From NCBI GenBank assembly GCA_963841565.1, contig CAWJCY010000003.1, positions 1 through 64,000 on the forward strand: a DNA stretch of 64,000 nucleotides, given 5' to 3'. The DNA is from an uncultured Nitrososphaerales archaeon. GTDB taxonomy: Archaea > Thermoproteota > Nitrososphaeria > Nitrososphaerales > Nitrososphaeraceae. A program made the translations under genes and the position numbers. Below are positions 569-16,379 of this stretch, piece by piece. A model generated the notes under the pieces. That model had not been told where the DNA came from, did no database searches, and worked only from the letters and a program-made list of their open reading frames with translations. The first letter of the stretch is position 1; each line of letters begins with the position of its first letter.

Positions 569-1183
569 ATGAGTGATAAACAAGTACCATTTTTTACTGC
601 AAATGATTTGATATATGGCAAGACTTATGGGAACTGGACGGTTGAGTGGTGGCGCTGGATTTTAGGGATCCCAAAGCAGGTAAATCCGGTTGTTGATTTG
701 AGTGGAGAATACACTAGAATGAATCAGCAAAATCGAGATGTATTATTCCTTGCTGGAAAATTGGCCGAAGAAGACGGAAGTCTCCCTGAGCGTAGTTGCG
801 ACGTATCAACCCAGAAATCAATTCTAGTACCTGTGATTAACTGCGAAGCGAATTTGATAGAGAACCCTGAATTAAAAACTTATAAAAACATCATTAAACA
901 TGTAAAAAGTGATGAAGATACTATTATCTGGGCTAAGTGCTATTTGGATGGTAGGGAAATTCAAACACAACGTATTAGTTCAGATCCTCTAGTATTTGAA
1001 GTAAAAATGGTGGACGACAATATATTTGACGTTGGGATGGGAGGAACTACTCATGCATCTGCTGATGGGTACTGGGCATTCTTGAAACCTCTTCCGAGAG
1101 GTAACCATACTATCTCTTTCGAAGGTTCGTGCGAGATGGGAAGATTGCATTCTGGAGCTGTATATCAGATAAATGTTGGGTAG
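569..1183 (+). CDS. Uncharacterised ~200-aa domain protein, paralogue 1 of 5 (cytoplasmic)
   Basis: Motifs YGNWTVEWWRWILGIP..NP..D..G, R.C.V...KSILVP, ASADGY, L.PL..GNHTI.FEG shared with four other ORFs in 0.5-10.2 kb; no signal peptide. Confidence 0.85.
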   Translation: MSDKQVPFFTANDLIYGKTYGNWTVEWWRWILGIPKQVNPVVDLSGEYTRMNQQNRDVLFLAGKLAEEDGSLPERSCDVSTQKSILVPVINCEANLIENPELKTYKNIIKHVKSDEDTIIWAKCYLDGREIQTQRISSDPLVFEVKMVDDNIFDVGMGGTTHASADGYWAFLKPLPRGNHTISFEGSCEMGRLHSGAVYQINVG

Positions 1184-1464
1184 AAAAATGAGGATCCCTT
1201 TGATTGTGCCGACACCTATGCATTATGATGGTTATCCAAGTTCGAAGATCCTTCTAGCCAAAGTTGAGGCATCGTATATTTAATAAAACTGGAGACCCCC
1301 ACAGGACAATGTGACAAATCTAACGAAATTTAAAAGTCGCGATTCGGTCCTGGTTTACCAGAAGAATTTTCGACATAATAGTACCATATTATTCAATTTT
1401 CAAAATTCTATCTGCCTACATTACTAGTTAGGTCATTTGGCAGGAGAAATTTTTAGTCGTGAAG

Positions 1465-1490
1465 TTCCATATGGAATACTATTTATTAAT
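1465..1490 (+). promoter_or_regulatory. Perfect palindrome TTCCATATGGAA followed by TATA box (TTTATTAA) of the small ORF at 1511
   Basis: Palindrome at 1465-1476; TTTATTAA at 1482-1489 lies -29 to -22 from the ATG, the spacing expected for a leaderless archaeal mRNA. Confidence 0.55.
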
Positions 1491-1510
1491 AAGCACTTCG
1501 TAGATATTGC

Positions 1511-1630
1511 ATGGATAAGGCACTAGCGACCCTAAAGGCGATAATTCTCGGCACTGCATCAATAGAATACGCTGGCAAAACGCCAATTAAAAGAACACCA
1601 GGAGACACGACCCAGATGGGGCACAACTAG
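1511..1630 (+). CDS. 39-aa small protein, candidate precursor peptide for the adjacent YcaO (MDKALATLKAIILGTASIEYAGKTPIKRTPGDTTQMGHN)
   Basis: Manual translation (below the ORF track cutoff); well-spaced TATA box upstream, T-rich tract after the stop, convergent with ycaO. Confidence 0.6.
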   Translation: MDKALATLKAIILGTASIEYAGKTPIKRTPGDTTQMGHN

Positions 1631-1870
1631 CGCATTTTTATTTAGATCCTGTAGACTAGTTCGTGGAAACCATTACTAAAGCTAGTTTGACATTCAGTGC
1701 GTGAAAAATAGTCGGTAATCTTTTATCGAATACGATAGAAGTGCCTAGCAGCCATCCCAATTGGAATATGTGAGAGACAGCGTTAAAATAAGACGGACTG
1801 AATCGTATCGACTGAAATTGACCAATTCTGCAGCCCTACAGTGGTGCTGCTTGTCTCTACAATGTTGTAA

Positions 1871-3244
1871 TTATGGGCTAATGAGTCTATTGAAATGTTT
1901 CCTCGCTCTACTACCCATAATTGCTTGGGTTACTTCAAAAGTTTCAAGTCCGGGAACAATCGCTCTTACAACGGGGATCCCGATATCAGGATTTGTAAGA
2001 TTGAATATTATTACTCTTCTTAACCCCGCTTCTTTCAGAACTGCTAGAAGTAAGTTTATGTCTGTCAAAATATCTCTATTTACGTATGTTCTAATTTCGG
2101 AGAAATTCATGACGTTATGCTCACAATTTTGCTCTGTTACCGAAGAAGGCATAAATTGCCATTTCCTTTTGTAAATTTCATCACTATCTTTGTATTGTAT
2201 TCTTTTCAAATCATCCCTCGCTCCTTGGATGTTTACCGCTCTGGTTTGAGAAAGCTCTGTAATCGCTCGTATCAGTGCTACTCTGGAATCTAGGTGGGTT
2301 CCATAACCTTTCGCAAATAGCCCGTAATCATGCGTTATCCAATCAATACTGCTTGCAACAATCGTCGGAATAGGAATATCTTTTTGTGCTATATTCTTTA
2401 TCAGCAACGGAATTCCAGCTTCAGTGAATTTACGAAGTAACTTCTTGATGAAGGGGAATTCCTTAGTTACTTCATCGATCTCGACATCTGGATAAATTGT
2501 GGGGTCATCCACAAATTTTGCTCCAATGGAATCTGATAAATGCGAATTACCGTAATTGGCTGGTACGAGGGATTCTCCTATTTTGTCAACAATATTGTAT
2601 GGAATACAGGATGCACATAAGTCGGCTATGCTAACCGCATCTCTTTCAATGACTTCGCAGAGCGCATGACACACGGCCTCTTCTAGAACAGTGCCAGATG
2701 CAAGTCCATTTGTATGGGAACTTTGAAACACGGAGATAGCCGGGCGTTTTGGAAAGTATCTGTAGTAAACAATCTCTGCGGGAACTAAAATTTCCTCGTT
2801 GTTTAGCAAATCGAATCCTGTTAAGTAGTCTATTGTAGTTGCCCCGTCATAATGAGGACTAACAGGTTCTGTTACCTCTGCTGGATGCAACACGTTACTG
2901 TAAGAATTTGACAGTTCTAAATAACTTGCCTTGATGATCGTTCCTGGGTTAATGCAATGCATTGAAGAGTACCTCTCTATAGATTCCATCACAGCGCTAA
3001 CTTTCGCTTGGGTTTTTGTCGTGCCTTTTCCGCCGTAGACCCAGAATATATCGTCAGTTCCTGGTAACGTAGTAGAATAGTTTGGAATATACAGTCTATC
3101 CATAAATGTTATGTCCGAAATTCTGGTAACTCCTATCTTCTTACAAACTGGCATGACTGTGGTGCACGTTTCATCGATAGGTGTTACTCTTGGTAGCAAT
3201 CCATCCCCGTCTTCAAAATTCTTTATTCTGCTTCTAAGACGCAA
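1871..3244 (-). CDS. ycaO: YcaO-family ATP-dependent peptide backbone-modifying enzyme
   Basis: GVTRISDIT..DR..IP, GKG....A..SA.MESIERYS, TNGLASG, ALCEVIERDA, ALIRAITELSQTR...QGARDD, IPVVRAIVPGLE motifs; no C-terminal PxP. Confidence 0.93.
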   Translation of the reverse strand: MRLRSRIKNFEDGDGLLPRVTPIDETCTTVMPVCKKIGVTRISDITFMDRLYIPNYSTTLPGTDDIFWVYGGKGTTKTQAKVSAVMESIERYSSMHCINPGTIIKASYLELSNSYSNVLHPAEVTEPVSPHYDGATTIDYLTGFDLLNNEEILVPAEIVYYRYFPKRPAISVFQSSHTNGLASGTVLEEAVCHALCEVIERDAVSIADLCASCIPYNIVDKIGESLVPANYGNSHLSDSIGAKFVDDPTIYPDVEIDEVTKEFPFIKKLLRKFTEAGIPLLIKNIAQKDIPIPTIVASSIDWITHDYGLFAKGYGTHLDSRVALIRAITELSQTRAVNIQGARDDLKRIQYKDSDEIYKRKWQFMPSSVTEQNCEHNVMNFSEIRTYVNRDILTDINLLLAVLKEAGLRRVIIFNLTNPDIGIPVVRAIVPGLETFEVTQAIMGSRARKHFNRLISP

Positions 3245-3309
3245 TTACAGATGTATTCATCACAAATCGTAGATTTAGGCTTTTTAGACAGTCCTGACGG
3301 GTCGGGTCC

Positions 3310-4041
3310 TTATTCTGCGATTATGGTATACTTGATATCTTGTGCAAAATTAGGTACCGCACAACCTGGGTCACTACAAATCAAGCTTGACCTAAAATGA
3401 ATTGGGTACGTCCCGTTTGTGAGAGGCTCAGTTAATATGTAGAAGCCATCCGCAACCGCCTTAGAAGGGCCTCCCTTTGCAACACCGAAAAGACCGTTAT
3501 CAGGATAGATCACTTCAAACGGTTCCGTAGGTTGAATACGGTACTTGAGAAGATCTTCGTAACCATATTCTTTATCGCCTATCTTAAGATACAAACTGTT
3601 GACACTATCTTGATCCTTTTTTGCTGAACTGCGTAGGTCATCAACTGAAGAACCTGGGGACTCTTTATCGGACCATTCTACCTGCATTACAGGTATAAGC
3701 AGGGACTTTCCTGCAGGGACTGTACACGTCCTTACTGATTCGCCACCATTGTTAAAGCTCAAGTAGAACACTGATGAATTTGAGTTTGCCTGACCATTCG
3801 CACATTTCTCTCCAGTCCTATCATTTGCAGGATTTTCACTGGCAGGTATTTGTATCGCCCATTTCCAGAAATTTTGTGCATGGTCGGCATATGTTAAATT
3901 GTAAGGAGTGGTATTTGGTGGATAAATATTTACTGAGTTTGAAGCTGCAACTGGCAATACAGTGAAAGATAGAAGAGTGAGCACAGAAACTGACGTTATT
4001 ACGAACCGCACTCTCATTAACATTTCTTGTACACTTAACAA
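3310..4041 (-). CDS. Secreted paralogue 2 of the uncharacterised domain family
   Basis: N-terminal hydrophobic signal peptide; FWKWAIQIP..ENP..D.TG..C, RTCTVPAGKSLLIP, KAVADGFY; four Cys; true start probably 4023 or 4017. Confidence 0.85.
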   Translation of the reverse strand: MLSVQEMLMRVRFVITSVSVLTLLSFTVLPVAASNSVNIYPPNTTPYNLTYADHAQNFWKWAIQIPASENPANDRTGEKCANGQANSNSSVFYLSFNNGGESVRTCTVPAGKSLLIPVMQVEWSDKESPGSSVDDLRSSAKKDQDSVNSLYLKIGDKEYGYEDLLKYRIQPTEPFEVIYPDNGLFGVAKGGPSKAVADGFYILTEPLTNGTYPIHFRSSLICSDPGCAVPNFAQDIKYTIIAE

Positions 4042-4095
4042 ATAGCATCCCTTACAAAAAGATTATGTTAGAGAGCTCAACATTGGTATTCAGCC

Positions 4096-5445
4096 TTGGA
4101 GATCCAGTACGAAGGGTCGTATAGTAACAAAATTTTTGTTATTTTAATGGTTAGCTTAGTTGTCACTATTTTGATTGATACTTCAGTTGTTAAAGTCAAC
4201 GATTTGATCGATAGATATTTTATCCCATTGCAGAGCAAATTAATCTTATTTTCAATCAATAGCATTGCGTGTATTCTTTTACAATATTTTATTATCAGAT
4301 ATATAAGAAATTCACTCCAAGGAAAACGAAGTAGTAAGACACTAAAAATTAAATCGTTCTATTTAATTTCGATAGTATCATTGGGCATATTAGGAACCTC
4401 AATCGGCTTGTTGATATTTCAGCAGTTTTACTTTGGATATTATGAATCATGGACAAGTACGTTGATAATTATCGTTAGTTATGGAACAGGAGCAGCCCTT
4501 ATATCATGGTTGGCTATATTGTTCCTTTCATGGTACAGATCTAATCGCAGATTGATCGTGTTTTTGTATTTTGTTTCCATGATTGTGATTGCCTTTAATT
4601 TGGTGATGGCTGCTACATACGCTACTTTGAAGGCAAATTCCAGACCAGCTCAAGTCGTAGAATACGTAGGAGGATCTGGGGACATAGCTGGGGTTAGATA
4701 TAAGTCTGTTGATACTACTTACAGTATTTCTTCTTTTATGGCATTCTTTAGCATATGGCTTACTACGGCGATCTTGCTGAATTATTACAGGGAAAAGGTG
4801 ATAAGCAGGATATTGTATTGGGTTCTACTTTCTATTCCGATAGTTTATTTTGTTATAACATTCTTTTATCAGCTTTTCTTGAGTACTTTACTAATTTCTT
4901 ATCTGGAGATAGACCCGATAGCTGTTTCAATATTCTTGAGTGCCTTCTTATCATTAAGCAGACCCATTGGAGGACTTTTATTCGGAGCAGCCTTTTGGAA
5001 TATCTCTAGAACGGTAAAGTATGAGAGAAGAATCAGAACCTACATGATTATTTCTGGTTGGGGCATATTTCTGATTTTCACATCGAATCAAGCGGAAACC
5101 CAAGTTGTTGGCCCGTATCCCCCATTTGGACTTGCGACAATAACTGTTTTGAACTTGGCAGCATACTTGGTCTTGTTAGGAATTTACAATTCGGCTAAAC
5201 TCGTCTCAGTGAATAATACTCTGCGAAAAAACATATATCAACATGCCTTGCGATCTGGGCTTCTACATTCAATAGGACAGGCGGAAATGGAAAAAGAAAT
5301 TCAGAAAACAGTAAATGAGATCATCAAGGATCAGCAGGATATTCTAGCAAGAGAAAAAGTGACAAGAGCCGAGTTTGATGAGAAAGAATTAAGAAAATAT
5401 CTAGACCAGGTCATTAACGAAGTCAAGAAAGATAGATCTTCGTAA
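4096..5445 (+). CDS. Polytopic membrane protein (~10 TM) with charged helical cytoplasmic C-tail
   Basis: About ten hydrophobic segments then SIGQAEMEKEIQKTV...LRKYLDQVINEVKK. Confidence 0.85.
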   Translation: MEIQYEGSYSNKIFVILMVSLVVTILIDTSVVKVNDLIDRYFIPLQSKLILFSINSIACILLQYFIIRYIRNSLQGKRSSKTLKIKSFYLISIVSLGILGTSIGLLIFQQFYFGYYESWTSTLIIIVSYGTGAALISWLAILFLSWYRSNRRLIVFLYFVSMIVIAFNLVMAATYATLKANSRPAQVVEYVGGSGDIAGVRYKSVDTTYSISSFMAFFSIWLTTAILLNYYREKVISRILYWVLLSIPIVYFVITFFYQLFLSTLLISYLEIDPIAVSIFLSAFLSLSRPIGGLLFGAAFWNISRTVKYERRIRTYMIISGWGIFLIFTSNQAETQVVGPYPPFGLATITVLNLAAYLVLLGIYNSAKLVSVNNTLRKNIYQHALRSGLLHSIGQAEMEKEIQKTVNEIIKDQQDILAREKVTRAEFDEKELRKYLDQVINEVKKDRSS

Positions 5446-5603
5446 TCGGTCGGTCATTAAGAAATTTGTGTCTAAACCTGTTAGTGCCCCCTGCTAGTGG
5501 AAGTGTCAGGAGCAAACTACCTATATGAGGGTATATAATGTCATAAGCGCAAGGGTTTGTTGCAATTTTGACGTATGTGATCTCTTGGCTACGTAGCATC
5601 GCG

Positions 5604-6914
5604 CTACCTGAAAATGCTTGCACCGGGGAAGGGGGTTTCACTAGGAGGGACAAAGAATATACCACATGCCCTAACAGAAAGAAAATCTTTCATTCCTGGA
5701 ATGTTTTCCGTTCCTGCGAAATTACTATTACCAAGCCAGTTAGGATCAGTCAAAATAAATAATAGTCGAGTAGGATCATTTTGGAAACTAATGAAATTTA
5801 GTCCCACTTTTAAAGGTTCAGAAGAATCATGAAACGAAGGTTCGAGAAATTCGAATCCTTGCCTAAAAATTCGTCTTGAGGCAGGATCCAAACTCTTTAT
5901 ATGGTCTATGTGACGCGTTCTTCCTATATGACTTTGACTCAAGAATCGAATTGAACTATTTGTATCTATTTTAGCTTTCATGCTGATATCTGCAGATGGG
6001 GGCATCAGGAAGTAATTGGGATGGTCGTGATATCTCTTATCAAATGATCGAACCTGTGAAAATGGTGGGCAGCCGGGTTTTCTTATGGGATTCCCATTCT
6101 TGTCAATACCCACTACGGGGATGCCATCTAATTTGTCTCTTCCAATCAGGATCTCTTGATCACACCGCTTAATCTGCTCCCATGCTGCAAGATTGATTTC
6201 AATACGCAAAAATGCAAGATAAGTACCACCCGCAGTCCAGAAATCTTGGTGTACCAAATCATTATTGGTTCTATCGATCACAATCGCTTGCCTTCTCTCC
6301 CTGGTGTTCTTCATGTTTGAAATCTCATCGTGAAATCCCAACCAGCTCCTGCTGTCGTCTCTTTGGAAACCCGTAAAAAATGTAGTAAGAGCAATTCCTC
6401 TCTTTGGGGGGACATTCATCGCAATATATTTCCGCGTCTCCACAACCGCGCGATAGGTTGCTAACTGCGAGTTTGATATAAATTGGACTGTTATGTGTTC
6501 CGTAATTCCTAAATTCCGAGGTACCTCAAGACTATAATTAATTCCTGATCCGTCTAAAATTGGTTCACCACTGACTGCTTCACGAAATTGCTTTCCCCCA
6601 AGATCTCTAGGTGTTTTCTTAGTTATTCCCGGAATAACGAAAATATTAGGACCATAACCAAGGAGAACGGACAGCCCTCCTGAGGGAACACGACGGCCAG
6701 GGAGATCACCTACAACACCTTTCTTAAGTTTCAAATACATCTTCCAAAGACCTCCTAAGTATTCAGCAGTCTCAGACGATGTTATACCATTGGAAATTCG
6801 GAGGAACGCAATCGCAAAACAACTATTTCTAGTATTGCTGTTATTCAATGCTAAATCGTTCAATTGATGTCTCCGATAATAGATCCCGTTTTGTAGTTTC
6901 TTCCCTTTTACCAT
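5604..6914 (-). CDS. DyP-type (dye-decolorising) haem peroxidase family protein
   Basis: LGFHDEISN (GxxDG variant), GGTYLAFLRI, QE.LIGR.K.DG, SHIGR (proximal His), RRIFRQG (distal Arg), GLNFISFQ. Confidence 0.8.
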   Translation of the reverse strand: MVKGKKLQNGIYYRRHQLNDLALNNSNTRNSCFAIAFLRISNGITSSETAEYLGGLWKMYLKLKKGVVGDLPGRRVPSGGLSVLLGYGPNIFVIPGITKKTPRDLGGKQFREAVSGEPILDGSGINYSLEVPRNLGITEHITVQFISNSQLATYRAVVETRKYIAMNVPPKRGIALTTFFTGFQRDDSRSWLGFHDEISNMKNTRERRQAIVIDRTNNDLVHQDFWTAGGTYLAFLRIEINLAAWEQIKRCDQEILIGRDKLDGIPVVGIDKNGNPIRKPGCPPFSQVRSFDKRYHDHPNYFLMPPSADISMKAKIDTNSSIRFLSQSHIGRTRHIDHIKSLDPASRRIFRQGFEFLEPSFHDSSEPLKVGLNFISFQNDPTRLLFILTDPNWLGNSNFAGTENIPGMKDFLSVRACGIFFVPPSETPFPGASIFR

Positions 6915-6965
6915 CTCAGATTCGCTTTTATTAAATCGTTATCGGATGGGTAACAAACAATCCGA

Positions 6966-7703
6966 CTATCTCCATGCACGCGTGACGATACGACGTCTGG
7001 CAGAAACATCCTCCATAGTTTCTTTTCTTTTTCCTTGTATTGTGATGTCATAAACAGAATCAGTATGATATGCTCCAGTTACACCACCAAAATTAATACG
7101 ATAAGTTGAGGGAGGAAGTGAGTCAATCAACAAGAAGATTCCTGCGGCGACCATGTCGTAAATTCCAGGGTCATAAGGATTATCGGCTTTATCCTTCAAG
7201 GAGCTGCTTTCTGGAACGTTCAACTTAAACAAAGGAGTTGCAACGTAATATTTCTTCAAATTATTTACGATTTTGCGTGCCTTCGCATCTCCTTTTTTCA
7301 TGATCGTAGCCCAAATAGGTCCACACTTTCGGATATCTATATTAGCGCTATATCGCAGCTGCTCTGGTGTTCTAAGCATCTTCCCCTCATATAGCTCCCC
7401 CACAATAAGCATCTCAACTATTACAGGAACTAAAATGGCTGTTCGTTCAAATACAGTCTGACCATTTTGCCCTGTTCTGTCGTAGATTGCCTTAGGATCA
7501 ATGAAGCGCGGCCCGATGCCAGAATCATTGACAGGAAGATAATTCACGTTTCCTCTCAGAAAAACTATATCGCCTCCATCATACGTATCAGGATATTCGG
7601 AAAACAACCAATTACACCATGTTGTCACCCATTCACTATATGACATACCAAGAAAGTTTTCGGAAGGTCTAACAATGTTAGCTCTCAATACTAAAGTCAG
7701 CAT
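6966..7703 (-). CDS. Paralogue 3 of the uncharacterised domain family (most divergent)
   Basis: FLGMSYSEWVTTWCNWL, IVFLRG, AILVPVI, MVAAGIFLLI..LPP.TY.I.FGG, VYDITI; start likely ATG 7703 or TTG 7688 given TATTAATA at 7716-7723. Confidence 0.8.
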   Translation of the reverse strand: MLTLVLRANIVRPSENFLGMSYSEWVTTWCNWLFSEYPDTYDGGDIVFLRGNVNYLPVNDSGIGPRFIDPKAIYDRTGQNGQTVFERTAILVPVIVEMLIVGELYEGKMLRTPEQLRYSANIDIRKCGPIWATIMKKGDAKARKIVNNLKKYYVATPLFKLNVPESSSLKDKADNPYDPGIYDMVAAGIFLLIDSLPPSTYRINFGGVTGAYHTDSVYDITIQGKRKETMEDVSARRRIVTRAWR

Positions 7704-7984
7704 CAACTCATGTGATATTAATACTTCTAATTTACAATGAGTGGGTGCATGATGGCACATAAAAATTCTTGCTCGAGTCAATTATTAGATTTCCGTTGGT
7801 TTGGATCAGATAAATTGATAGATAGGTAACTAGAAGCTTTGTTCTGTCCTCAGAAATTGTGAGAAGCGATACCGCTGACCTCCCCCCTTTATAGGTGGAA
7901 TCTTACCCTTTCGTAATCCATTACGATTGCCCTACTGAACGAGATGGATTCAGTTTCATATTAAGTCAAAAAGGCATCCGAAAA

Positions 7985-8629
7985 TTACACTGACACTTTA
8001 AAAGTGTATGTTACATTCTCTACGTGGTCCTCTTTAGCTGGTTCCCCTCGGTTTGCAAACTCTATAGTGTCTTTTCTGCCTGCAAGTCTTATTTTGCCCT
8101 CAAAATGTATCTCATGATCTCCAACGGAAGGCTCCCATACAATATATACACCATCTGCAACAGCTTTGGAAATGCCTTTGTGAACGTCGAAAAGAGCACC
8201 ATCTGGAAATTCAACATCAAACGGATCCGTACGAACTCGAAAACGACTTTCCAGAGTTCTTTCGGGAAGTCGTTCTCCGTCTATTTCAATATGGCCATAG
8301 TCTATACTGTCGTGATCCACATCGGCAAATCTATACAATTGGGAAATGTCTGGACTATGACTTTCAAATTCTGAACCAATGAAGCTGAGGGAGGGTATGA
8401 ATATTTTTTTGCCGCGCTCAACGGTACCAATCTTCCGATTAAAAGGTTCAGCTAATCCTGGGGGGAGAAATATGTATTCATCCCTTTTTAGAGTAGATTT
8501 GTTCGCTTCTATAATTTTATTTCCATCACTATGAAAACCCGGACTAATAGATTCGGGAAAGCTGCAAAACCATTTGAAATACTCCTCCACAATTTCTGCT
8601 GCAGCACGACTCAGAGTATCGTTACTCAT
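7985..8629 (-). CDS. Paralogue 4 of the uncharacterised domain family
   Basis: YFKWFCSFP, GKKIFIPSLSF, DHDSID, IDG, KAVADGVY, GDHEIHFEG, VTYTFKV; start MSNDT at 8629 with TTTATTA about 30 nt upstream. Confidence 0.85.
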   Translation of the reverse strand: MSNDTLSRAAAEIVEEYFKWFCSFPESISPGFHSDGNKIIEANKSTLKRDEYIFLPPGLAEPFNRKIGTVERGKKIFIPSLSFIGSEFESHSPDISQLYRFADVDHDSIDYGHIEIDGERLPERTLESRFRVRTDPFDVEFPDGALFDVHKGISKAVADGVYIVWEPSVGDHEIHFEGKIRLAGRKDTIEFANRGEPAKEDHVENVTYTFKVSV

Positions 8630-9537
8630 TAATACTGATAACTTATTATGGCTAATAAACTTTAGATGACAGGCAATACAACAATCATAAGATTTCATTC
8701 GTCAACATGCTCGCTGATCCTGAATTTTGTTTCTTATTTTGTCTGTGTTCCCATAATGGGACCCAACTTAATTAGATGGTAAAATGATTACGTGCCTTCT
8801 CCCTTAACCTAACTAGGTAATCTCTCCTTCGTTTTCACGAAATGAGATTATCTTATCGGACAATTAGGTCCGAAGCGGGTTTGACGTACTTTCGGGGGAC
8901 AAGGCGCAAATCATCATGGTCCATTTCGAAAGGGGTAGGAATTCTGTTGCTCCGAGTTGATTAGTCGAAAAGATCGCATTCGATCTAATTCTTAAATTAT
9001 TGTTTGTCATCTTAAGGAAGACACATGAATAGAGTAGATTGTCGACAAGCAACCGTTATAGGTATCAGTTACTGTTTTGTTCTCTCTGATTCCGTTATCT
9101 GCTTTCAACCGATCCCTTTCTGTAGAATATCATAAGCGATCTGTGATGCATACGGGTTGCCGATGCGGTCTCTTCGACGAGTCCACGTAAAACATTTGTG
9201 TGGACAGAAGTCAGTTCATTTGTATCGAAATATTATTTGTCCATATAGGCAGTTGATTAGATTCATAACATAATGCGAATCTCTCCATGCACCAAAGCCT
9301 ATCTCCTTAGAAAATAATTCGAAGGTTAGAAGGAAAATCTAGGGGGCATATTTTCCATTATTTTTTTCGGCAATATGTATTATTACTTCTTACGGATGTA
9401 AGACACATTAGGTTGAATAGCTGCAAGTTCTCCGGATAGAAGCAAAACGGCTTCAGTTTGATGAACTCGATAATGATGAAGTTTCCAACAAATCCTCAAG
9501 TTTCGCATCCTACTGTAAGAAAGTACAGGTCCTAAAG

Positions 9538-10165
9538 TTAGATTATTGTCAACTTGTATGTTAAATCTTCGTTGTAGGTTCTATACTCCAAGCTGTCTTG
9601 GTTTTCGGGAATGTTCACTGTTCCTGCAAAATGTATAATGTGGTGAGACCTCAGCTTCGAATCCTTGGAGGACCAGATAGGCACCATCTGCTACAGCATC
9701 AGAGTCACCAGGGCGCGCGCTGAAGAGATTTGGATCGGGAAAGAAAACCTGAAAAGGTGTTTTAATGGGTACTCTGAAACTGTCCAGATTTGAAATATCG
9801 TTCCCGTCAATCGTGACATGGCGAGATACTTGATCGATGCTATCATGATCTATCTCTGAAAATGAATTCAATTTGTTAGTACTTGATGCAGGTCTTTCAG
9901 CTTCTGAAGCCAAGAAACTGAGGGAAGGTACAAGAACCTTTTGGTCTGAGTTAACAGTACATTCCCTTATGTTTGGTCCCTCGTGGGTCACAGATAGATA
10001 AAAAAAGTCCTTATTCCCTTCTCGGAAATTATTTGCATCTATATCCCTGGCTCCATCATTATTGAAAGTCGGATTTTGTTTTCTTGGTAATTTACAAAGC
10101 GACTGCCAAAAATCTATTACAATCTCTTCGCTTGCTTTAACAGGATTCAAGGGATTTGTAGTCAT
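9538..10165 (-). CDS. Paralogue 5 of the uncharacterised domain family (1-nt frameshift near 9650)
   Basis: FWQSLCKLP..QNP, RECTV, KVLVPSLSF, DHDSID, DAVADGAY; the shifted frame continues SHHIIHFAGTVNIPENQDSLEYRTYNEDLTYKLTII* to TAA at 9538. Confidence 0.8.
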
Positions 10166-10387
10166 TGCTAATTCTCCCCCCGTGGCACTAATAAAGTTTA
10201 ATTCTAACATAAGTTCGAAGTCAAAAACACACCTTAAATTGGATCAAGTCGAACCTAAAGGATATTTAGATACTGTACTAGGTGGCTATCCTATTTATGC
10301 ATGGACAAATCGCATAAAAGGATGAGTTGTTGTTTCTCTCCTTTAAAAGTAAAGGTAAAAATAGTGTTTGTGGAACTGAAATGATGT

Positions 10388-10555
10388 ATGCCAATCACAG
10401 ACGCTACCAAGAAACAAATCGCCCAGCAACGAAGGCTTTTCTTTAAGGTATGTTTCAAATGTGGTGGAAGGAATCCAATATCGGCATCCCGCTGTAGAAA
10501 ATGTAGAGGAAGCCAGCTAAGACTGAAGAACAGAACTCTAGGTGCCAAGAAATGA
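10388..10555 (+). CDS. rpl40e: 50S ribosomal protein L40e
   Basis: Manual translation MPITDATKKQIAQQRRLFFKVCFKCGGRNPISASRCRKCRGSQLRLKNRTLGAKK; Zn-finger CxxC...CRKC. Confidence 0.95.
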   Translation: MPITDATKKQIAQQRRLFFKVCFKCGGRNPISASRCRKCRGSQLRLKNRTLGAKK

Positions 10556-10824: not shown

Positions 10825-11208
10825 ATGTACGAAGCTATTGTGGGCTTATTCATTAAGAGCATCGATCCTCTATACAAATGGCTAAGCGAGAATCTGTTAG
10901 CTCATATTTTGACTTTCGGCAAGGAATTCGGTGCAGTTGTGGTGTTCATATCAGCTGTTGTATTCCTCTTAATCACTGTATACTTTATTATGAAACAGGC
11001 AAAAAGGTTACCCAAGCGTTACGTGCTTGAAACGTTTGATCAAGATGGAAAGAAAACTGTGATTCCAGAATTAAGGATAACGTTTGATACGTATCAAGCT
11101 GCTGCGAGCTACGCCGACTTCTATACAAGGCTGTACGAATACAAGTACAAGTTTAGGTTGCTCGGAATCAGAGACAGTATTTCAATTCTTGGGCGTTTAG
11201 ATCGCTAG
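10825..11208 (+). CDS. Hypothetical membrane-anchored protein
   Basis: 127-aa ORF with one TM segment, GAGGT RBS-like motif upstream. Confidence 0.65.
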   Translation: MYEAIVGLFIKSIDPLYKWLSENLLAHILTFGKEFGAVVVFISAVVFLLITVYFIMKQAKRLPKRYVLETFDQDGKKTVIPELRITFDTYQAAASYADFYTRLYEYKYKFRLLGIRDSISILGRLDR

Positions 11209-11620: not shown

Positions 11621-13345
11621 ATGAAATATCCTAAAGTTGTATTGACTGCAGACCGGACACTTATGTCGCCGTATAGAGGAATATCTTTAGCTTCATTCTT
11701 TGGCTGTGCTCCTGCTATTGACACTAAGAGAGATCCTACATCCCTCTGGTACAAGTTAATGGGTCAACAGATAACTCCGAGGTTATTGTTTGATTTCATC
11801 TGTAATCCGATTGAGAATATTAATGGAGTCGCAAAATACGCTCCATATGGACTAAGGAAGGTCGAGTCTTCTCTCATTAGGGATGGTTACAGCAGGGAAG
11901 ATGTCGTTGTAGCCCACCCCGATTACGTTGAAAAATTTATAGGCCCTGAAACTCAAGTCGTTGGCACTTACGAGATGGATCCTCTGGGAATGGGACCAGT
12001 CACCATGACCTTCACGTACGGACGTAAACACATGTCATATGACGAATTTTATTGCAGAGAACTGCATAGGCGAATATCCAACGCAAAAAAAGAGAATGGA
12101 AGTAATGCAAAGGTCATAGCAGGTGCATCAGGCACATGGCAGTATAACTATGATCCTGCAAAGATAGAAGAGTATGGAATCTACGGTATAGTTGAGGGAG
12201 ATCTTGGTGGAATTGGTCCGGAGATAGATGGAGCAGGTGCCAGTTTCTTTGATGCTGCGATAGCTGGTGATTTCGAAACCGCCAATCCGTTCAAGAAGTC
12301 TAAATTTAAAGTTGAAATTAAAGAATACGATCGACCTGAGCGAAAATATCATGGCCGATTTATTCATTATTGGGATGAGCCTTCGGTTGATGAAATCCCT
12401 GACATCATAAATCCAAGCATGCATGGGATGGTTGAAGTGATGCGGGGTTGCGGGAGAGGATGTAAATTTTGCGACGTAACCCTCAGGCCATTGCGTTACT
12501 ATCCTGTTGAAAAAGTGCAAAAGGAAATTCAGGTAAATATGAAATATGGCGGAAGCAAAAGTGCATGGATTCAAAGTGACGATATTTTTGTTTACGGTCT
12601 AAACCCAAGGACCACTAAGAACATGGAACCCAATAGAGAAGCTTTAGAAGAACTCTTCAAAGGTATTATGGATACGGGAATCGAACATACTAACCCTACT
12701 CATGGTACTTTAGCAGGCGCAATAGCCGACGAAAGACTCATTCCAAGTATCTCAAAGATTATCCGATCGAGTCCTGAAAATCACATAGGCATTCAATGTG
12801 GCTTCGAAACGGGGAGTACTCGTTTAATAGGCAAGTATGCTGATCGAAAGCTAGCCCCATTCAAACCGAACGAATGGCATTGGGTTGTAAAGCATGGAGT
12901 CAAGACTTTGAATCAGGACTACTGGGTTCCAGCGTTCACGTTGATAATGGGTTTGAATAACGATGAGACTCCTGAAGATAGTTGGGAAACCATTCAATTG
13001 ATTCATGAATTAGAAACCGAACAGCCAGATTCAAGATTTACAGTTACACCGTTGACATTTGTCCCTATTGGGCTGTTAGAGAAATCTGAATTCTTTGACA
13101 TAAACAATACAATGGACCCCCCTAAACTAGGAGTAATGTACAAAACATGGCAGCATAATTTCAAATATGGAATTCAGAAATTCATGCGAAAAGTTGGGCG
13201 AGATAATCCGATGAAAAACTTGTTCTTTGCTGGTTTGGCGAGGTCATTAGGAGGTGTTCCACTAAATGCTATGGAGAGATTCGCAAGAAGAAAGGGTCGA
13301 GAGCACGAATTGGTTATAGAGAAAATAAAGGCCAGTTACTGGTAG
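11621..13345 (+). CDS. B12-binding-type radical SAM protein, GDGT ring synthase (Grs)-like
   Basis: VVLTADRTLMS, APYGLRKVE, HPD, MDPLG.GP N-terminal motifs; RGCGRGCKFC CxxxCxxC. Confidence 0.8.
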   Translation: MKYPKVVLTADRTLMSPYRGISLASFFGCAPAIDTKRDPTSLWYKLMGQQITPRLLFDFICNPIENINGVAKYAPYGLRKVESSLIRDGYSREDVVVAHPDYVEKFIGPETQVVGTYEMDPLGMGPVTMTFTYGRKHMSYDEFYCRELHRRISNAKKENGSNAKVIAGASGTWQYNYDPAKIEEYGIYGIVEGDLGGIGPEIDGAGASFFDAAIAGDFETANPFKKSKFKVEIKEYDRPERKYHGRFIHYWDEPSVDEIPDIINPSMHGMVEVMRGCGRGCKFCDVTLRPLRYYPVEKVQKEIQVNMKYGGSKSAWIQSDDIFVYGLNPRTTKNMEPNREALEELFKGIMDTGIEHTNPTHGTLAGAIADERLIPSISKIIRSSPENHIGIQCGFETGSTRLIGKYADRKLAPFKPNEWHWVVKHGVKTLNQDYWVPAFTLIMGLNNDETPEDSWETIQLIHELETEQPDSRFTVTPLTFVPIGLLEKSEFFDINNTMDPPKLGVMYKTWQHNFKYGIQKFMRKVGRDNPMKNLFFAGLARSLGGVPLNAMERFARRKGREHELVIEKIKASYW

Positions 13346-13357
13346 GAATTAGTTTTT

Positions 13358-14142
13358 TTACCCTAATGTGAACCCACTGATACAACTATCGTGCATAGCA
13401 CCTGATCCAATAGACTGAAGAAGTTTCCTGCCTATCTCGCTCTCAGGTTCAATTATTGCACCTCTCATTGGTTTATGACATATTGAACATACGAACGGCC
13501 TAAATGAGTCAATTGAATCGCCATTTCTCATACGTTTAATCACCGATAACTCGCCCCCAGAATAAGAGGAAGTTGATGCAAATTCAAACAGCTCCCTTAT
13601 ATCTTCATTGCACGTAATGCCATCCTGCTCAATCTCTTGCAACAGAAGTGCAGATAAGCCTTATTGGTTGATTTCAGCACATCAACTAATTCGTGAGCCA
13701 AAGATCTGAGATTCAGACCGTTCATGCGGCAAAACCTGTTATACTCATGTTCGACTAACATAGGATTGAAACCATTAGTAGCAATAACTTCCACAGGGGT
13801 CTTACCATTCTGGAATTCACTATACATCTTCTTCAGATCTTCTTGTCCCAGAGGCGGAATGTCTGTCAAGGGTCCGAGATCGGGCCTAGTAACTAAAGTT
13901 TTAGCTTCAGCACGAGCCAAGGTTAGGGTTTCATCTCCAACAGAATGTGAAAAAACGCTTAATCTTTTATCTGTCAAAATACCTGTGGCTTTCAATTTAG
14001 ATTTCTCCTTGAACACGTTTCCTTCAGTTGTCCCCACAGTACGAGCAATCTCTCTAGCAGAGTACTTGTTATCATTGTCAAGGAGCATCTTCTCTATCAT
14101 CTCCTTTTTGGTGCCACTTTGTTGAAAAGTTCTTCTGGTCAA
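13358..14142 (-). CDS. HTH DNA-binding protein with C-terminal Zn-binding motif (split by a frameshift near 13640)
   Basis: YSAREIARTVGTTEGNV HTH; overlapping downstream ORF has CSICHKPM...HDSC. Confidence 0.6.
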
Positions 14143-14149
14143 TTAATGG

Positions 14150-14275
14150 TATAATATAGTAAGGTAAATAGGGTAAATATACTTACCGTTGGATAAGGGC
14201 AGTAAATTGGAGTGCCATTTACCATATCTACATACTTACCTTACTGACCTTACCTATAATATGGCCTGACCTTAT
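14150..14275. repeat. Cluster of short direct/inverted GGTAA-TTACC motifs upstream of the HTH gene
   Basis: GTAAGGTAA 14159-14167 is inverted to TTACCTTAC 14236-14244; ATACTTACC at 14179 and 14232; CTGACCTTA at 14244 and 14266; TATAATAT at 14150 and 14255. Confidence 0.55.
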
Positions 14276-14804
14276 TGCGAATAGAATTAGGACAACTGCG
14301 TAAGCTGAAAGGCGGCTGTTTGGCGTTACAGGTTACCACCACCACCAATTCCAATATATTCTGGCTATTCATCCCCTATGCACGGATCTATAATTGGGGA
14401 AGGTGTTCACTCGGACTGATGTGCGTTGTCCATCATAAAATCAAAATACTTCGTAGCAAGTGCTGTTTACGCGTTCAAACATCTCTGAGAAATCTCCTTG
14501 ACTTCTTCTTGCAAATTTCTTGCCTCCTGCGTAATTTCGAACGCAAGAAATTATTCATATTTTTAATGAACCGACCAAACAATCTGAAATATGGGCCCAG
14601 CAAAACTGAGGTTCGAATTTCAAGATGCATGGTCAATATATCGCTAGGTAACGGTTCTTCGATGTAGACAAAGCTACATTTGTGTTTTGCCTAAAGACTT
14701 TTCCGATGCATGAAGTTAGTTTACACCTTAGCACAAACATTTTGGGTATCTCTCGTCCTTATGTATGCTGATATTCTTCAAGATGTGCCAACGAACGATC
14801 CAGT

Positions 14805-16379
14805 GTGTTTATCCGCTTGGGCGGAGTGTGGTACCGCAAAGATTTTGTTAGAGAGAGTGTACATGAGGTACTTAGACTGCTTTTGTCTCCTACATTTGAT
14901 TTTATAAAAAACCGATTCAAATCCAAATCCAAACTTAAACCAGAGTCTTCAGATCAACGTGACAGGTACTCAAAAGGTGAGAGAAATAATGATCTAGACA
15001 GGGATTCTAGCACAGATGGATATGACCAAAGCGAATTGGCATTGGAGCAAAGTGACAGGTCTGACCCCCAACGACTAGCGGAATTGTCTGGAAAAGGTAT
15101 CAGCATTGAGGATGCAGCGAATCGGCTTCGTAGGATTGAAGAGCAAAAGACAGATGAGCTTGTCCAACAGCTTTCTCCAATTAGAGACTCTGCGCAAGCA
15201 AGTTTGCAGTCAATCGTAGACTTGGCCGCTGATCTGCAGAATGAAGAGATTAAGGTAGAGGATCAACGATTTGAATCAGCAGTGGAAAACGCTCGTAGCA
15301 CAGTTATTAACTCTATATTGAAGGATGCGAATTCTAGCTTTCCAGAAATAGCCTCCTACAGTGATGCACTCAAGTTCAAAGACCGACTAGAATCAATTAC
15401 TAATCGTTTCGGTCAGCTAACTGGCTCCCACAGCAAACTTTTCAATGTATTTCTAAAGAAGTATGCTGACAAATTCAGATCTGAATTTGCAGACTTTACT
15501 AACCTGAACAAGAAGACATCAAAATTGATCAAAAACTATGACCTCGATTTGGAAGACACAAACGCTTGTAGCCAAAAAATTGCCGACCTATCTAACAACA
15601 TATCATCTTTGAGTTATTCTAAGGAGAGAATAGCCACCATGTCAGCAGAAGTAAGTGAATTGGAAAAGGATATTACGCAATTGACAACGCGTCGTCACGA
15701 AATAGAACAGTCTGACGAGTACAAAAATTATGCCCTTCTTGAATCTGAAGCTAGAGAATTGGAAAAAAGCAAGGCAGAATTCCGTGAATACGTCTCTGAT
15801 TTGTTCTCGCATCTTAATCGTGCTTTTACGAAATATTCTTATGGTGTCTCAAAGAGCGTGGCAGCAAAAATCGACGTTCTTTCTAACTCTCCATGGGAGA
15901 TATTTTTGAATCAGAGAAGGATTGAATCAGACGGTCTTTCAGATTCATCCAACCAAAATTTGGAACGAAGCAAAGAGGACTGTGAGATAATTGAGGCTTA
16001 CAGAACATTACTCGTTGAGATACGGGGAGCTGTCAATAAAGGTACAATAAGTTTAAAGGATTCAGACAAGGTTTCGACATATTTGGAAAAGGCGATCGAC
16101 ATGTTTCCCAAAATTGAGTCTAGAGGATGGGAGATACAACAGAAGGTAATAAGCATAAAACAAAATCAGAATCGTAAGGCATTTAATTCGATAAAGTCTC
16201 TTGACGATTTGATCCAGCGAAACAAGAGAGAGATCGAAGAAAAGAAGATTCTGGTTGCAGAGACACAAGCCACTTTTGAAGCAAAAAAGAAGGAAATCCA
16301 CGATTTGACCGATGCATGTAGTACCTTGTTAACTGAGATAATCGGGCAAGAGAAAATCATAACGACGACTCAGGATTGA
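14805..16379 (+). CDS. Long coiled-coil hypothetical protein (true start probably downstream of 14805)
   Basis: Heptad-rich charged helical sequence; TTTTATAAAA at about 14900 suggests a later start. Confidence 0.75.
   Translation: MFIRLGGVWYRKDFVRESVHEVLRLLLSPTFDFIKNRFKSKSKLKPESSDQRDRYSKGERNNDLDRDSSTDGYDQSELALEQSDRSDPQRLAELSGKGISIEDAANRLRRIEEQKTDELVQQLSPIRDSAQASLQSIVDLAADLQNEEIKVEDQRFESAVENARSTVINSILKDANSSFPEIASYSDALKFKDRLESITNRFGQLTGSHSKLFNVFLKKYADKFRSEFADFTNLNKKTSKLIKNYDLDLEDTNACSQKIADLSNNISSLSYSKERIATMSAEVSELEKDITQLTTRRHEIEQSDEYKNYALLESEARELEKSKAEFREYVSDLFSHLNRAFTKYSYGVSKSVAAKIDVLSNSPWEIFLNQRRIESDGLSDSSNQNLERSKEDCEIIEAYRTLLVEIRGAVNKGTISLKDSDKVSTYLEKAIDMFPKIESRGWEIQQKVISIKQNQNRKAFNSIKSLDDLIQRNKREIEEKKILVAETQATFEAKKKEIHDLTDACSTLLTEIIGQEKIITTTQD

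Follow-up and report, generated by a model that had tools for sequence, protein, structure and literature searches.

Methanogens carry YcaO enzymes that, with or without TfuA, thioamidate a glycine of McrA (TIGR03266; MJ1094, PDB: 6pe3 and 6peu), and the YcaO of the archaeal island analysed here resembles them most. The methan_mark_1 model (TIGR03266) is its best-scoring NCBIfam model, MJ1094 is its nearest solved structure (1.1e-40), and its three YcaO motifs align with those of MJ1094 and are invariant in alignment A4. PMC5589413 (2017) had already placed the YcaOs of ammonia-oxidising archaea in the McrA-thioamidation clade. However, the island YcaO scores below the equivalog cut-off of methan_mark_1 (266 versus 365 bits), and its host has no MCR. 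Furthermore, the island gene is an additional, accessory copy that falls into a separate clade, and its partner is a dedicated 39-aa gene instead of a large enzyme subunit. Like the island YcaO, MJ1094 presumably lacks an adjacent TfuA in its own genome.

The bacterial TfuA-YcaO clusters for thioamidated RiPPs (thioviridamide-type thioamitides and "TfuA-related" biosynthetic gene clusters) contain a YcaO of non-azoline type next to a short peptide gene, as does the island, and backbone thioamidation is the expected chemistry of both. The island differs from these clusters in its archaeal host, the lack of an adjacent tfuA, the convergent orientation of its peptide gene, and a peptide that matches no known precursor family. 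Because tfuA is not adjacent, mining that requires TfuA would miss the island. PMC8120280 reports eight Thaumarchaeota TfuA-related clusters, which correspond to the core YcaO-TfuA pair type.

The azoline-forming TOMM cyclodehydratases (SagD, TruD, LynD, and MusD) share the YcaO domain, and TruD, MusD, and LynD match the island YcaO over residues 287–435. The invariant Thr34 of the island peptide could in principle be cyclised. Nevertheless, the island YcaO has neither an E1-like or ThiF-like partner nor a fused N-terminal domain, and its TIGR03604 score is 149, against a cut-off of 219. Azoline-forming YcaOs have a proline-rich C-terminal tail, whereas the island enzyme ends with ...NRLISP, and the core of the peptide contains no run rich in Cys, Ser, or Thr. 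The TIGR00702 model is matched with 206.6 bits (cut-off 75.65). Since the methan_mark_1 and SagD-type models both score under their cut-offs, the chemistry is not settled by homology.

The remaining genes of the island recall the parts list of EfeUOB-type systems, which combine the DyP peroxidase EfeB with a membrane permease and an extracytoplasmic beta-sandwich/cupredoxin protein; the island counterparts are the DyP, the polytopic membrane protein, and the anchored beta-sandwich paralogue. The nearest solved relatives of the island DyP are "deferrochelatase/peroxidase" EfeB-like enzymes, the GFKDG sequence of which aligns with GFHDE of the island protein. In contrast to EfeUOB, the island membrane protein has no FTR1/EfeU match, the DyP is optional and has no Tat or signal sequence evident by eye, and the beta-sandwich is not recognisably a cupredoxin (amicyanin Z score of only 4.1). 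The membrane protein also resembles prokaryotic 7TM sensor modules: its C-terminal half (approximately residues 207–444) shares homology with the membrane part of ~1000-aa histidine kinases from the same genomes (e.g., G000:C2, 1036 aa, HisKA and HATPase_c). However, its matches to 7TMR-DISM_7TM (E 0.085) and to an atlas cluster with HisKA_7TM (0.82, a lead only) are below threshold, and it ends in a C-terminal helix instead of a kinase or other output domain. No published description of such a system was found.

Gene content and recurrence of the island

The window, the whole 64,000-nucleotide stretch analysed, starts at the first nucleotide of its contig, and therefore no sequence to the left of it is readable in this assembly. 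Every gene of the island at positions 569–10165 was found where the original prediction had placed it (Table 1). The L40e-like gene to the right matches Ribosomal_L40e weakly (20.7 bits, cut-off 23) and is 89–98% identical across related loci, and the right flank is syntenic.

Table 1. Features of the island and its right flank, in window coordinates
Feature	Position	Strand	Remarks
P1, paralogue of unnamed beta-sandwich family (204 aa)	569..1183	+	peptide-adjacent subfamily; neither signal peptide nor hydrophobic segment at N-terminus
TATA-like box TTTATTAA	1482..1489	+	-29 to -22 from ATG of 39-aa gene
39-aa peptide gene, candidate YcaO substrate (precursor peptide)	1511..1630	+	conserved beside island-type YcaO
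Island-type YcaO (457 aa)	1871..3244	-	Pfam YcaO 2.3e-70
P2 paralogue (243 aa), divergent from membrane protein gene, with hydrophobic N-terminus (signal peptide or anchor)	3310..4041	-	
Polytopic membrane protein (449 aa)	4096..5445	+	AF2: ~10 long helices + C-terminal helix
DyP-type peroxidase (436 aa)	5604..6914	-	Dyp_perox_C 6.6e-19
P3 paralogue, DyP-adjacent subfamily	6966..7781	-	
P4 paralogue	7985..8698	-	best profile score among paralogues, 3.2e-96
P5 paralogue	9581..10210	-	last island gene, then conserved core genes
L40e-like gene	10388..10552		core gene right of island
127-aa membrane protein	10825..11208		core gene right of island
Radical SAM	11621..13345		core gene right of island

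Searches with YcaO, for related loci, and with a peptide profile in 121 family genomes yielded 22 distinct Nitrososphaeraceae loci, many of them on contigs shorter than 10 kb; being related, these loci are not independent observations. The island-type YcaO and the 39-aa gene occur together in 20 of the 21 assessable loci, in convergent orientation every time. One locus (L068) contains the peptide, with a P30H substitution, but not the YcaO. Paralogues are present in 20 of the 22 loci, the membrane protein gene in 13, and the DyP gene in six, so that the predicted co-occurrence of YcaO with a short ORF and the domain family was borne out, whereas that with DyP was limited to a minority of loci. 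Neither the peptide nor a paralogue was found at 14 core (TfuA-linked) YcaO loci used as a control. The islands have no conserved partner of the protease, exporter, TfuA, E1-like, or dehydrogenase type.

The island YcaO and the 39-aa peptide

In the phylogenetic tree, the island YcaOs form one clade with 100/100 support (13 island rows versus 15 core rows), and the island YcaO shares 49% identity with the core copy at C7 of its own genome. There is one TfuA per genome, each time beside the core YcaO and never beside the island YcaO. The island YcaO is an accessory second copy, a paralogue of the TfuA-linked YcaO of the lineage.

The 39-aa ORF, predicted to be equipped with a promoter, is a real gene tied to the island YcaO. 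In addition to the linkage described above, it is under purifying selection (pN < pS in 55 of 55 pairs; median pS 0.75, pN 0.32), and all 14 peptide loci have a TATA-like A/T box ([TC]TTA[TA]...) at an equal distance upstream of the gene. The genome studied here holds a single copy. The peptide has no match to any known family in Pfam or NCBIfam, and public data contain 184 clusters of it. Among the 120 clusters listed, all have P30, G31, and T34, 111 end in H-[N/Q], and 80 are exactly 39 aa long. The peptide has a helical N-terminal half and a C-terminal part with an invariant P30-G31-x-x-T34 ... H38-N39. Its conservation runs the full length, and a clearly variable core is absent. Such full-length conservation would fit a small functional protein or a cofactor precursor equally well as a leader/core RiPP.

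The complex of the YcaO and the peptide was predicted with a median ipSAE of 0.79 (runs 0.79, 0.72, and 0.79), whereas the best of three control complexes reached 0.04. Of 80 solved complexes, 58 attained this ipSAE mark, as did two of 110 mismatched pairs, counts that are only rough here because the analysis used its own alignments. The runs share at least 66% of contacts, and the pLDDT of the partner is at least 58. In the models, peptide residues 21–37 lie on YcaO residues including 329 and 332–337 of the TE..Q.R..N motif. The success of the modelling may be partly owed to solved YcaO-peptide complexes. The predicted complex supports the proposal that the peptide is a partner of the YcaO, and the peptide is probably its substrate.

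Paralogues, membrane protein, and peroxidase

The five proteins P1–P5 are paralogues of one domain, as originally proposed, and align with 22–28% identity and 13 invariant columns (alignment A1); the paralogue alignment A2 has no invariant column. They belong to a large beta-sandwich family without a Pfam model, and P1 has no match in Pfam or NCBIfam. The AlphaFold2 model of P2 residues 35–243 (pLDDT 97.3, pTM 0.93) has no solved relative. A profile of P1–P5 found only these five proteins and one C-terminal fragment (C12:286450–286752) in the 2.05-Mb assembly, and thus their clustering is unlike that of a dispersed family. Paralogue subfamilies follow the neighbouring gene, be it peptide, membrane protein, or DyP, and the tree requires three label changes compared with a shuffled mean of 11.2, a figure not reached in any of 200 shuffles. 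P1 orthologues adjoin the peptide gene in L013 (71% identity) and L018 (52%) and the YcaO in L019 (41%), and P1 falls into a clade of six rows with 100/99 support. In L013, which is syntenic to the island, a P3 orthologue (84%; subfamily clade support 99/98) lies beside a DyP orthologue (77%), and P4 has an orthologue with 60% identity. Translation of P3 probably starts further downstream than the listed TTG.

An N-terminal hydrophobic segment is absent from 48 of 58 paralogues in a scripted count, and in many of them the residues after the preceding stop codon are too few for a signal peptide. Most paralogues therefore probably reside in the cytosol and do not act as extracellular binders. 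Eight of the ten paralogues with the segment adjoin a membrane protein gene, and the secreted or anchored paralogue and this gene form a conserved divergent pair. The membrane protein belongs to a multicopy family specific to Nitrososphaeraceae. The predicted ten transmembrane helices agree with its AlphaFold2 model, which has about ten such helices and a C-terminal helix (pLDDT 78.9) and matches no solved fold.

The DyP exceeds the Dyp_perox_C cut-off (68.7 versus 20 bits). Its homologues adjoin paralogues at seven of eight places in relatives, and there is one natural fusion of DyP with the paralogue domain (P0218). DyP is not an obligatory tailoring enzyme, given that it is optional and is also encoded in islands that lack both YcaO and peptide (L020, L021, and L022).

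Tens of copies of the membrane protein-paralogue cassette are present in related genomes, mostly without YcaO, and the two families have up to 38–39 matches per genome. This makes the island a mosaic, with YcaO plus peptide and DyP as add-on modules. The proposal of one functional unit is supported as far as the recurrence of the linkage is concerned. Because YcaO and peptide are missing from most cassettes and from several DyP islands, and no more than 15 of the 121 family genomes contain the peptide, the function of the cassette cannot depend on the peptide.

Alternative explanations and proposed mechanism

We somewhat favour the interpretation that the island is an undescribed archaeal RiPP-like system, a conserved accessory island of soil Nitrososphaeraceae, which are ammonia-oxidising archaea, with a YcaO-peptide core within a membrane protein/beta-sandwich cassette. 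A chance pile-up in a variable region of one genome, with the 39-aa ORF not being a gene, is highly improbable. The region is accessory and its gene content differs between genomes; nevertheless, the YcaO-peptide and paralogue linkage, the frequent pairing of DyP with paralogues, the selection on the peptide, its promoter box, and its many public clusters all indicate a recurrent unit, and related genomes did not show the unlinked genes that the original prediction had named as evidence against itself. Unlikely, but the most probable of the alternatives, is that two systems share one hypervariable region by the L40e and radical SAM genes, a self-contained RiPP-like YcaO and peptide and an unrelated sensing or surface cassette, with or without DyP, and are neighbours only because both accumulate there. 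Island content varies at the same chromosomal site, where L020 and L022 carry DyP, membrane protein, and paralogues without YcaO or peptide, the cassette families lie mostly away from any YcaO, the peptide is rare while 19 of 24 sampled genomes of the family have paralogues, and within the 9.4 kb of L059 no paralogue accompanies the YcaO-peptide pair. However, the pair is accompanied by paralogues in several genera and in rearranged gene orders, including sites away from L40e (L030, L031, and L034), specific paralogue subfamilies adjoin the peptide gene, and paralogues are absent from the core YcaO loci.

It is rather unlikely that the island YcaO modifies one or more of the cytosolic beta-sandwich paralogues, with the 39-aa product being an accessory or regulatory YcaO subunit, e.g., a TfuA stand-in. 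The closest characterised relatives of the enzyme (methan_mark_1 family, MJ1094) act on a protein (see also PMC5589413 and PMC7581889), and the thioamidation of McrA by YcaO(-TfuA) in methanogens provides an analogy. The end-to-end conservation of the peptide, the proximity of mostly apparently cytosolic paralogues, and the absence of a protease and exporter from the islands are consistent with such a target. On the other hand, the complex model lays the most conserved stretch of the peptide in a substrate-like manner on the YcaO face with the invariant motif, few paralogue positions are invariant across subfamilies, and the paralogue family is abundant without island YcaO.

In the favoured RiPP-like system, the modification of the peptide, the chemistry involved, and every role of paralogues, membrane protein, and DyP, all of them inferred, would be as follows. 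The enzyme would be a TfuA-less YcaO from a clade split from the TfuA-linked, McrA-thioamidation-type YcaO of the lineage, and its substrate would be the 39–40-aa peptide, expressed as a separate transcript from a gene tail-to-tail with that of the YcaO. The conserved C-terminal half of the peptide (approximately residues 21–37) would bind to the YcaO groove, and YcaO with ATP would activate a backbone amide near the invariant P30-G31-[D/E/N]-x-T34. The most likely product would be a thioamide, formed with the single TfuA of the genome acting in trans or without TfuA; cyclisation of Thr34 to a methyloxazoline, or other amide chemistry, would be less likely. The YcaO-peptide pair would have entered a cassette expanded in this lineage, composed of a sensor-like 10-TM protein together with a divergently encoded membrane-anchored beta-sandwich protein, and accompanied by differentiated cytosolic beta-sandwich paralogues and, in a subset of islands, by a cytoplasmic DyP. 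For these proteins, binding or processing of the product, or a response to it, is the probable role.

Gene content and genomic setting of the island

The assembly comprises 2.05 Mb in 13 contigs and is 88% complete; the first 64 kb of its contig C3 make up the window. The YcaO, 39-aa ORF, five paralogues, DyP-type peroxidase, and membrane protein that the original prediction had described were all found between positions 569 and 10210. The gene calls, the Pfam and NCBIfam matches, and a paralogue profile that is limited to the island, apart from one fragment on contig C12, therefore confirm the initial observation. The only name attached to the nearest homologues of the window proteins is 'hypothetical protein [Nitrososphaeraceae archaeon]'. 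The 880 nt between paralogues P4 and P5 (8699-9580) contain no ORF longer than 62 aa, and none of the ORFs of at least 50 aa in this stretch matches the paralogue profile.

Genes of the island, with their positions in the window
Gene	Position	Strand	Domain or family match
Paralogue P1	569-1183	+	~200-aa domain
39-aa ORF	1511-1630	+	
YcaO	1871-3244	-	Pfam and NCBIfam
Paralogue P2	3310-4041	-	~200-aa domain
Polytopic membrane protein	4096-5445	+	
DyP-type peroxidase	5604-6914	-	Pfam Dyp_perox_C
Paralogue P3	6966-7781	-	~200-aa domain
Paralogue P4	7985-8698	-	~200-aa domain
Paralogue P5	9581-10210	-	~200-aa domain

Within the genus, the island occupies one shared site to the left of three genes, which encode a conserved L40e-like protein, a membrane protein of 127 aa, and a radical-SAM protein. 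The content of the site varies: it holds the YcaO, peptide, and DyP in the window and in locus L013, the YcaO and peptide without a close DyP in L018, and a DyP without a YcaO in L020 and L022. The YcaO/peptide pair of other genera is found in different contexts. The 127-aa protein (window 10825-11208, +) contains a single hydrophobic segment and matches no family; it lies at the island border, between the L40e-like and radical-SAM genes, in at least six related loci, with 60–83% identity. The radical-SAM protein directly to the right of the island (window 11621-13345, +; 574 aa) is 88–96% identical across genomes of the genus and behaves as a core gene, not as part of the island. Its score against the B12-binding/radical-SAM family TIGR04013 (8.8e-11) is under the cut-off, and the similarity to the MCR glutamine C-methyltransferase model is insignificant (E 0.04). 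No recurrent extra flanking genes were detected among 10 proteins scanned from L018, L030, L031, and L034, which included a photolyase, a fumarase, a Snf7-like protein, a PRTase, a hydrolase, and two peptidases, each non-recurring. The peptidase genes, of the thermolysin (M4) and papain (C1) types, are located to the left of the island in L018 only (L018:1092-5620).

Linkage of the YcaO, the peptide, and the paralogues

Island-type YcaOs, accessory copies located beside the peptide gene, were identified on seven further contigs from five genomes, every one of which also carries paralogues. A search with one genome per species yielded seven more distinct loci, and a peptide-profile search of 121 family genomes, which found the peptide in 15 genomes from 7 of 18 genera, provided seven more independent loci. 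The resulting set contains 22 distinct loci, many of them metagenomic contigs of a few kb, and because the loci are mutually related, their counts represent non-independent events. As expected for a RiPP cluster, in which a short precursor gene lies beside the modifying enzyme and is conserved with it, 20 of the 21 assessable loci contain both the YcaO and the small ORF, tail-to-tail every time. The exceptions in the set are L037, where the contig stops inside the YcaO, and L068, where a peptide with the substitution P30H occurs without a YcaO. The retrieved stretches of 20 of 22 loci include a paralogue; the two that lack one are L039, of 3.2 kb, and L059, of 9.4 kb. None of 14 control loci of 5.5–7.5 kb around core YcaOs, the TfuA-linked copies, contains the peptide or a paralogue. 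The linkage of YcaO, peptide, and paralogues, which had been set beforehand as the point on which the prediction could fail, is thus borne out. Gene order and chromosomal context differ among the loci, and the linkage has therefore outlived rearrangement. The membrane protein is present in 13 of the 22 loci and the DyP in six. The proposed functional unit is matched by recurrent gene linkage for the YcaO, peptide, and paralogues, with the DyP as an optional member that also occurs without a YcaO in L020 and L022. DyP homologues of the relatives adjoin paralogues in seven of eight places.

The island YcaO belongs to the YcaO superfamily according to PF02624 (237.9 bits, cut-off 25.7, E 2.3e-70) and TIGR00702 (206.6 bits, cut-off 75.65). 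The closest solved structure is that of M. jannaschii MJ1094 (1.1e-40), and the aligned motifs ME.IER, E..ERD, and TE..Q.R are kept in the island protein. Residues E86, E89, R90, E196, E199, R200, D201, E329, Q332, and R334, which belong to the ATP-Mg site of YcaO enzymes, are invariant in 19 island and core YcaOs. The genome encodes a second, core YcaO on contig C7 (436 aa, 49% identity to the island copy), which is directly followed by the sole TfuA of the genome (C7:75265-75621); this pair (C7:73805-75768) has no island-like peptide gene nearby. In a set of 41 related genomes, which was also used for the paralogue and membrane protein tallies and includes the unpublished genome G013, which contributed no locus to the locus analyses, a core YcaO with a single adjoining TfuA is present in 24 of 24 other family genomes and, of 16 other families of the order, in two. 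TfuA is single and located beside the core YcaO in all 27 genomes that carry it. Maximum-likelihood analysis of 13 island and 15 core YcaOs groups all island copies in a single clade (support 100/100); since the tree was rooted at its midpoint, it does not give the order of descent between the island and core copies. Only ORFs of at least 380 aa were included, and the tree thus lacks the broken YcaO of L038 and the partial ones of L039 and L061. In L038 (6815-8348, +), the island-type YcaO is split across four overlapping frames next to an intact peptide gene, and it is either a decaying gene or the result of assembly indel errors.

The best NCBIfam model for the island YcaO is that of McrA-glycine thioamidation (TIGR03266), although the score of 266.3 bits is below the cut-off of 365. 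The model of the azoline-forming SagD type (TIGR03604) produced a lower score of 149.1 bits, also below its cut-off of 219.25. Azoline-type partners (an E1-like or ThiF-like protein, a fused domain, or a dehydrogenase) are absent from the Pfam and NCBIfam matches of the island proteins and 10 flanking proteins. A TfuA-associated YcaO is expected to adjoin tfuA, whereas the island YcaO does not, and neither a TfuA nor an E1-like or dehydrogenase partner was found for it. A review (PMC7581889) describes thioamidation of an McrA peptide, with ATP and sulfide, by the YcaOs from M. acetivorans, M. kandleri, and M. jannaschii. YcaOs of ammonia oxidisers were placed in the methanogen McrA-thioamidation clade in 2017, and ammonia-oxidising archaea lack MCR (PMC5589413). 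Genome mining of the kind described in PMC8120280, which requires an adjoining TfuA and presents eight Thaumarchaeota clusters in its supplementary tables, would miss the island. A published description of the island was not found among the papers listed for YcaOs, RiPPs, and DyPs of ammonia-oxidising archaea outside subscription journals.

The small ORF is a genuine gene, as judged from its sequence conservation. Fourteen aligned copies retain an intact frame throughout, with M1, A10, S17, P30, G31, T34, and the penultimate histidine invariant. Among 11 of the genes, pN is lower than pS in 55 of 55 pairs (medians of 0.32 and 0.75, respectively). The ORF had been predicted to possess a promoter, and a TATA-like box ([T/C]TTA[T/A]...) is indeed located at a fixed distance in all 14 loci, at positions -29 to -22 relative to the start codon. 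A box in this position fits a leaderless archaeal transcript. Public protein data contain 184 peptide clusters at E<=0.01; of the best 120 of these 184, every one contains P30, G31, and T34, 80 have a length of exactly 39 aa, and 111 end in His-Asn or His-Gln. The peptide matches no Pfam or NCBIfam family, and the only name attached to it is 'hypothetical protein'. A profile search of all genome ORFs of at least 20 aa detected neither a second copy nor a similar host protein beyond the island copy; the next-best match (E 0.1) is unconvincing. Locus L030 contains two peptide genes in tandem after the YcaO (L030:8609-8874, -), the first with cysteines at two positions of its C-terminal part (...PGDCTECSHQ) and the second shortened, divergent, and ending in ...DLTQH.

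A complex of the island YcaO with the peptide was modelled from a YcaO alignment (A4) and a peptide alignment (A5) in three runs accompanied by three controls. The runs reached ipSAE values of 0.79, 0.72, and 0.79 (median 0.79), compared to 0.04 for the best control, with contact agreement of at least 66% and partner pLDDT of at least 58. The ipSAE mark is attained by 58 of 80 solved complexes versus 2 of 110 mismatched pairs, a calibration that applies only roughly here because our own alignments were used. The confident interface includes residues 21–37 of the peptide and residues 121–126, 208–219, 240–245, 307–311, 329–337, 344–363, and 435–447 of the YcaO, among them invariant residues of the TE..Q.R..N motif. 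The model supports a putative binding of the peptide by the island YcaO, and its score may owe part to solved YcaO-peptide complexes.

Beta-sandwich paralogues, membrane protein, and DyP

The five paralogues align with 22–28% identity and 13 invariant columns, and match no Pfam or NCBIfam family. The sixth match of their profile in the whole assembly, the fragment on contig C12 (C12:286450-286752), covers profile positions 132–234, about 100 aa, and thus only the C-terminal half of the domain. The family contains 5,168 clusters at 50% identity and E<=0.001, or 2,585 at 1e-10, and a Pfam scan of 96 members returned nothing at E<=0.01. Among the relatives sampled, 19 of 24 family genomes carry it, with a maximum of 38 matches in one genome, whereas the 16 genomes from other families of the order have none. 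Elsewhere, the domain forms tandem repeats or is fused to Ig/HYR, phytase-like, GDSL-lipase, and Cache-like domains. One protein, P0218, named 'Dyp-type peroxidase family', combines a DyP with the paralogue domain; the DyP of L014 was checked for such a fusion and contains no paralogue domain. Proteins of about 600 aa from two other genera (L026:2913-4730, -; L027:3973-5760, +) consist of an N-terminal paralogue domain and a Cache-like region, with dCache_1 scores of 44.4 and 36.3 bits, under the cut-off of 45.

Modelled by AlphaFold after removal of the N-terminal segment, P2 is a beta-sandwich with an N-terminal helix, predicted with very high confidence (pLDDT 97.3, pTM 0.93). The single Foldseek match in the PDB at E<=0.001 is a chagasin-type protease inhibitor (3pnr_B, E 4.3e-5); its TM-score is only 0.26–0.38, and the fold was not assigned. 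The VIA-align wide comparison reached a best Z of 5.3 with generic Ig-like folds, which also permitted no assignment. The chagasin-type matches and the M4 and C1 peptidases of L018 are two separate weak hints. A simple script detected an N-terminal hydrophobic segment in 10 of 58 island paralogues, eight of which adjoin a membrane protein gene. In most other copies, only 12–30 residues separate the preceding stop codon from the domain, leaving no space for a signal peptide. A tree of 61 paralogue copies, from which profile matches shorter than 130 positions and loci L024, L038, L039, and L059 were omitted, contains a clade adjacent to the membrane protein (9 of 11 rows), a P3-type clade adjacent to the DyP or YcaO, and clades adjacent to the peptide. 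The three neighbour labels require 3 changes on this tree, compared to a mean of 11.2 after shuffling, with 3 or fewer in none of 200 shuffles. Since subfamily tracks neighbour, the paralogues are differentiated components rather than recent random duplicates. We flag the domain, which is strongly expanded in Nitrososphaeraceae, as uncharacterised: its more than 5,000 clusters at 50% identity lack a Pfam model and a solved relative.

The membrane protein family is distributed similarly, with members in 22 of 24 family genomes, none in 16 outside the family, and up to 39 matches per genome, and it often adjoins a paralogue. Residues ~207–444 of the island protein are homologous to the membrane region of proteins of ~1000 aa. 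One such membrane region occurs in a 1036-aa kinase of the same genome with HisKA and HATPase_c domains (contig C2; L054:2199-5309, -). Stand-alone copies without nearby paralogues are located on contig C11 (L055:1232-2614 and 13754-15175). The predicted structure (pLDDT 78.9) has approximately ten long helices and a C-terminal helix. Foldseek returned no known fold at E<=0.001; the best rows are GPCR- or rhodopsin-like with TM-scores of at most 0.32, and no fold was assigned. The match to 7TMR-DISM_7TM (13.2 bits) is below the cut-off of 29, and the atlas entry HisKA_7TM (0.82) provides a lead only. The protein resembles a sensor module that lacks an output domain, a likeness that does not amount to family membership. 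This sensor-like protein represents a second uncharacterised family strongly expanded in Nitrososphaeraceae. EfeUOB-type iron uptake would require an FTR1/EfeU permease, whereas a Pfam search of the island membrane protein, extended to E 1, detected no FTR1.

The DyP is identified by Dyp_perox_C (68.7 bits, cut-off 20, E 6.6e-19), and its score of 79.6 against the superfamily model TIGR01413 is under the cut-off of 100.5. The catalytic aspartate of GxxDG is present in the sequence GFHDE, which has glutamate in place of the last glycine and aligns with GFKDG of 6i7z. The alignments of the distal arginine and proximal histidine are weak or not displayed.

Putative product and its significance

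The best-supported interpretation is that a YcaO from a TfuA-less clade and a dedicated 39-aa peptide constitute a putative RiPP-like enzyme-substrate pair. The pair lies within a lineage-expanded cassette of a sensor-like membrane protein and beta-sandwich proteins and is genetically coupled to it; the DyP is an optional addition. Homology favours thioamidation, which the YcaO would introduce near P30–T34 of the peptide; it may instead cyclise the invariant Thr34 or perform a different amide chemistry. The islands contain no conserved generic RiPP leader peptidase or exporter, and the peptide is conserved over its whole length, which together leave two options for its role. In the first, the modified peptide would be retained inside the cell, bound to a protein or resembling a cofactor. 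In the second, the peptide would serve as an accessory subunit, and the paralogues would be the true substrates of the YcaO.

Read jointly, the components would define a new class of ribosomal peptides or peptide-derived cofactors of ammonia-oxidising archaea, which we regard as rather unlikely. The 39-aa precursor with the invariant C-terminus PG[D/E/N]xT...H[N/Q] would receive a backbone thioamide, or another amide modification, from the TfuA-less YcaO. Oxidation or cross-linking of the peptide would follow in some strains, carried out by a dedicated DyP peroxidase of the cytoplasm. The product would be handled by purpose-built beta-sandwich binding proteins and perceived by the 7TM-like sensor that lacks a kinase.

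The island supplies a concrete, expressible candidate substrate for one clade of ammonia-oxidiser YcaOs, and genome mining that needs an adjoining TfuA or a known precursor family would overlook it. It could be the first described RiPP-like system in Nitrososphaeraceae, soil nitrifiers of global importance. If the joint reading is true, the island encodes a system for the production and perception of a peptide in a group without known peptide signalling.
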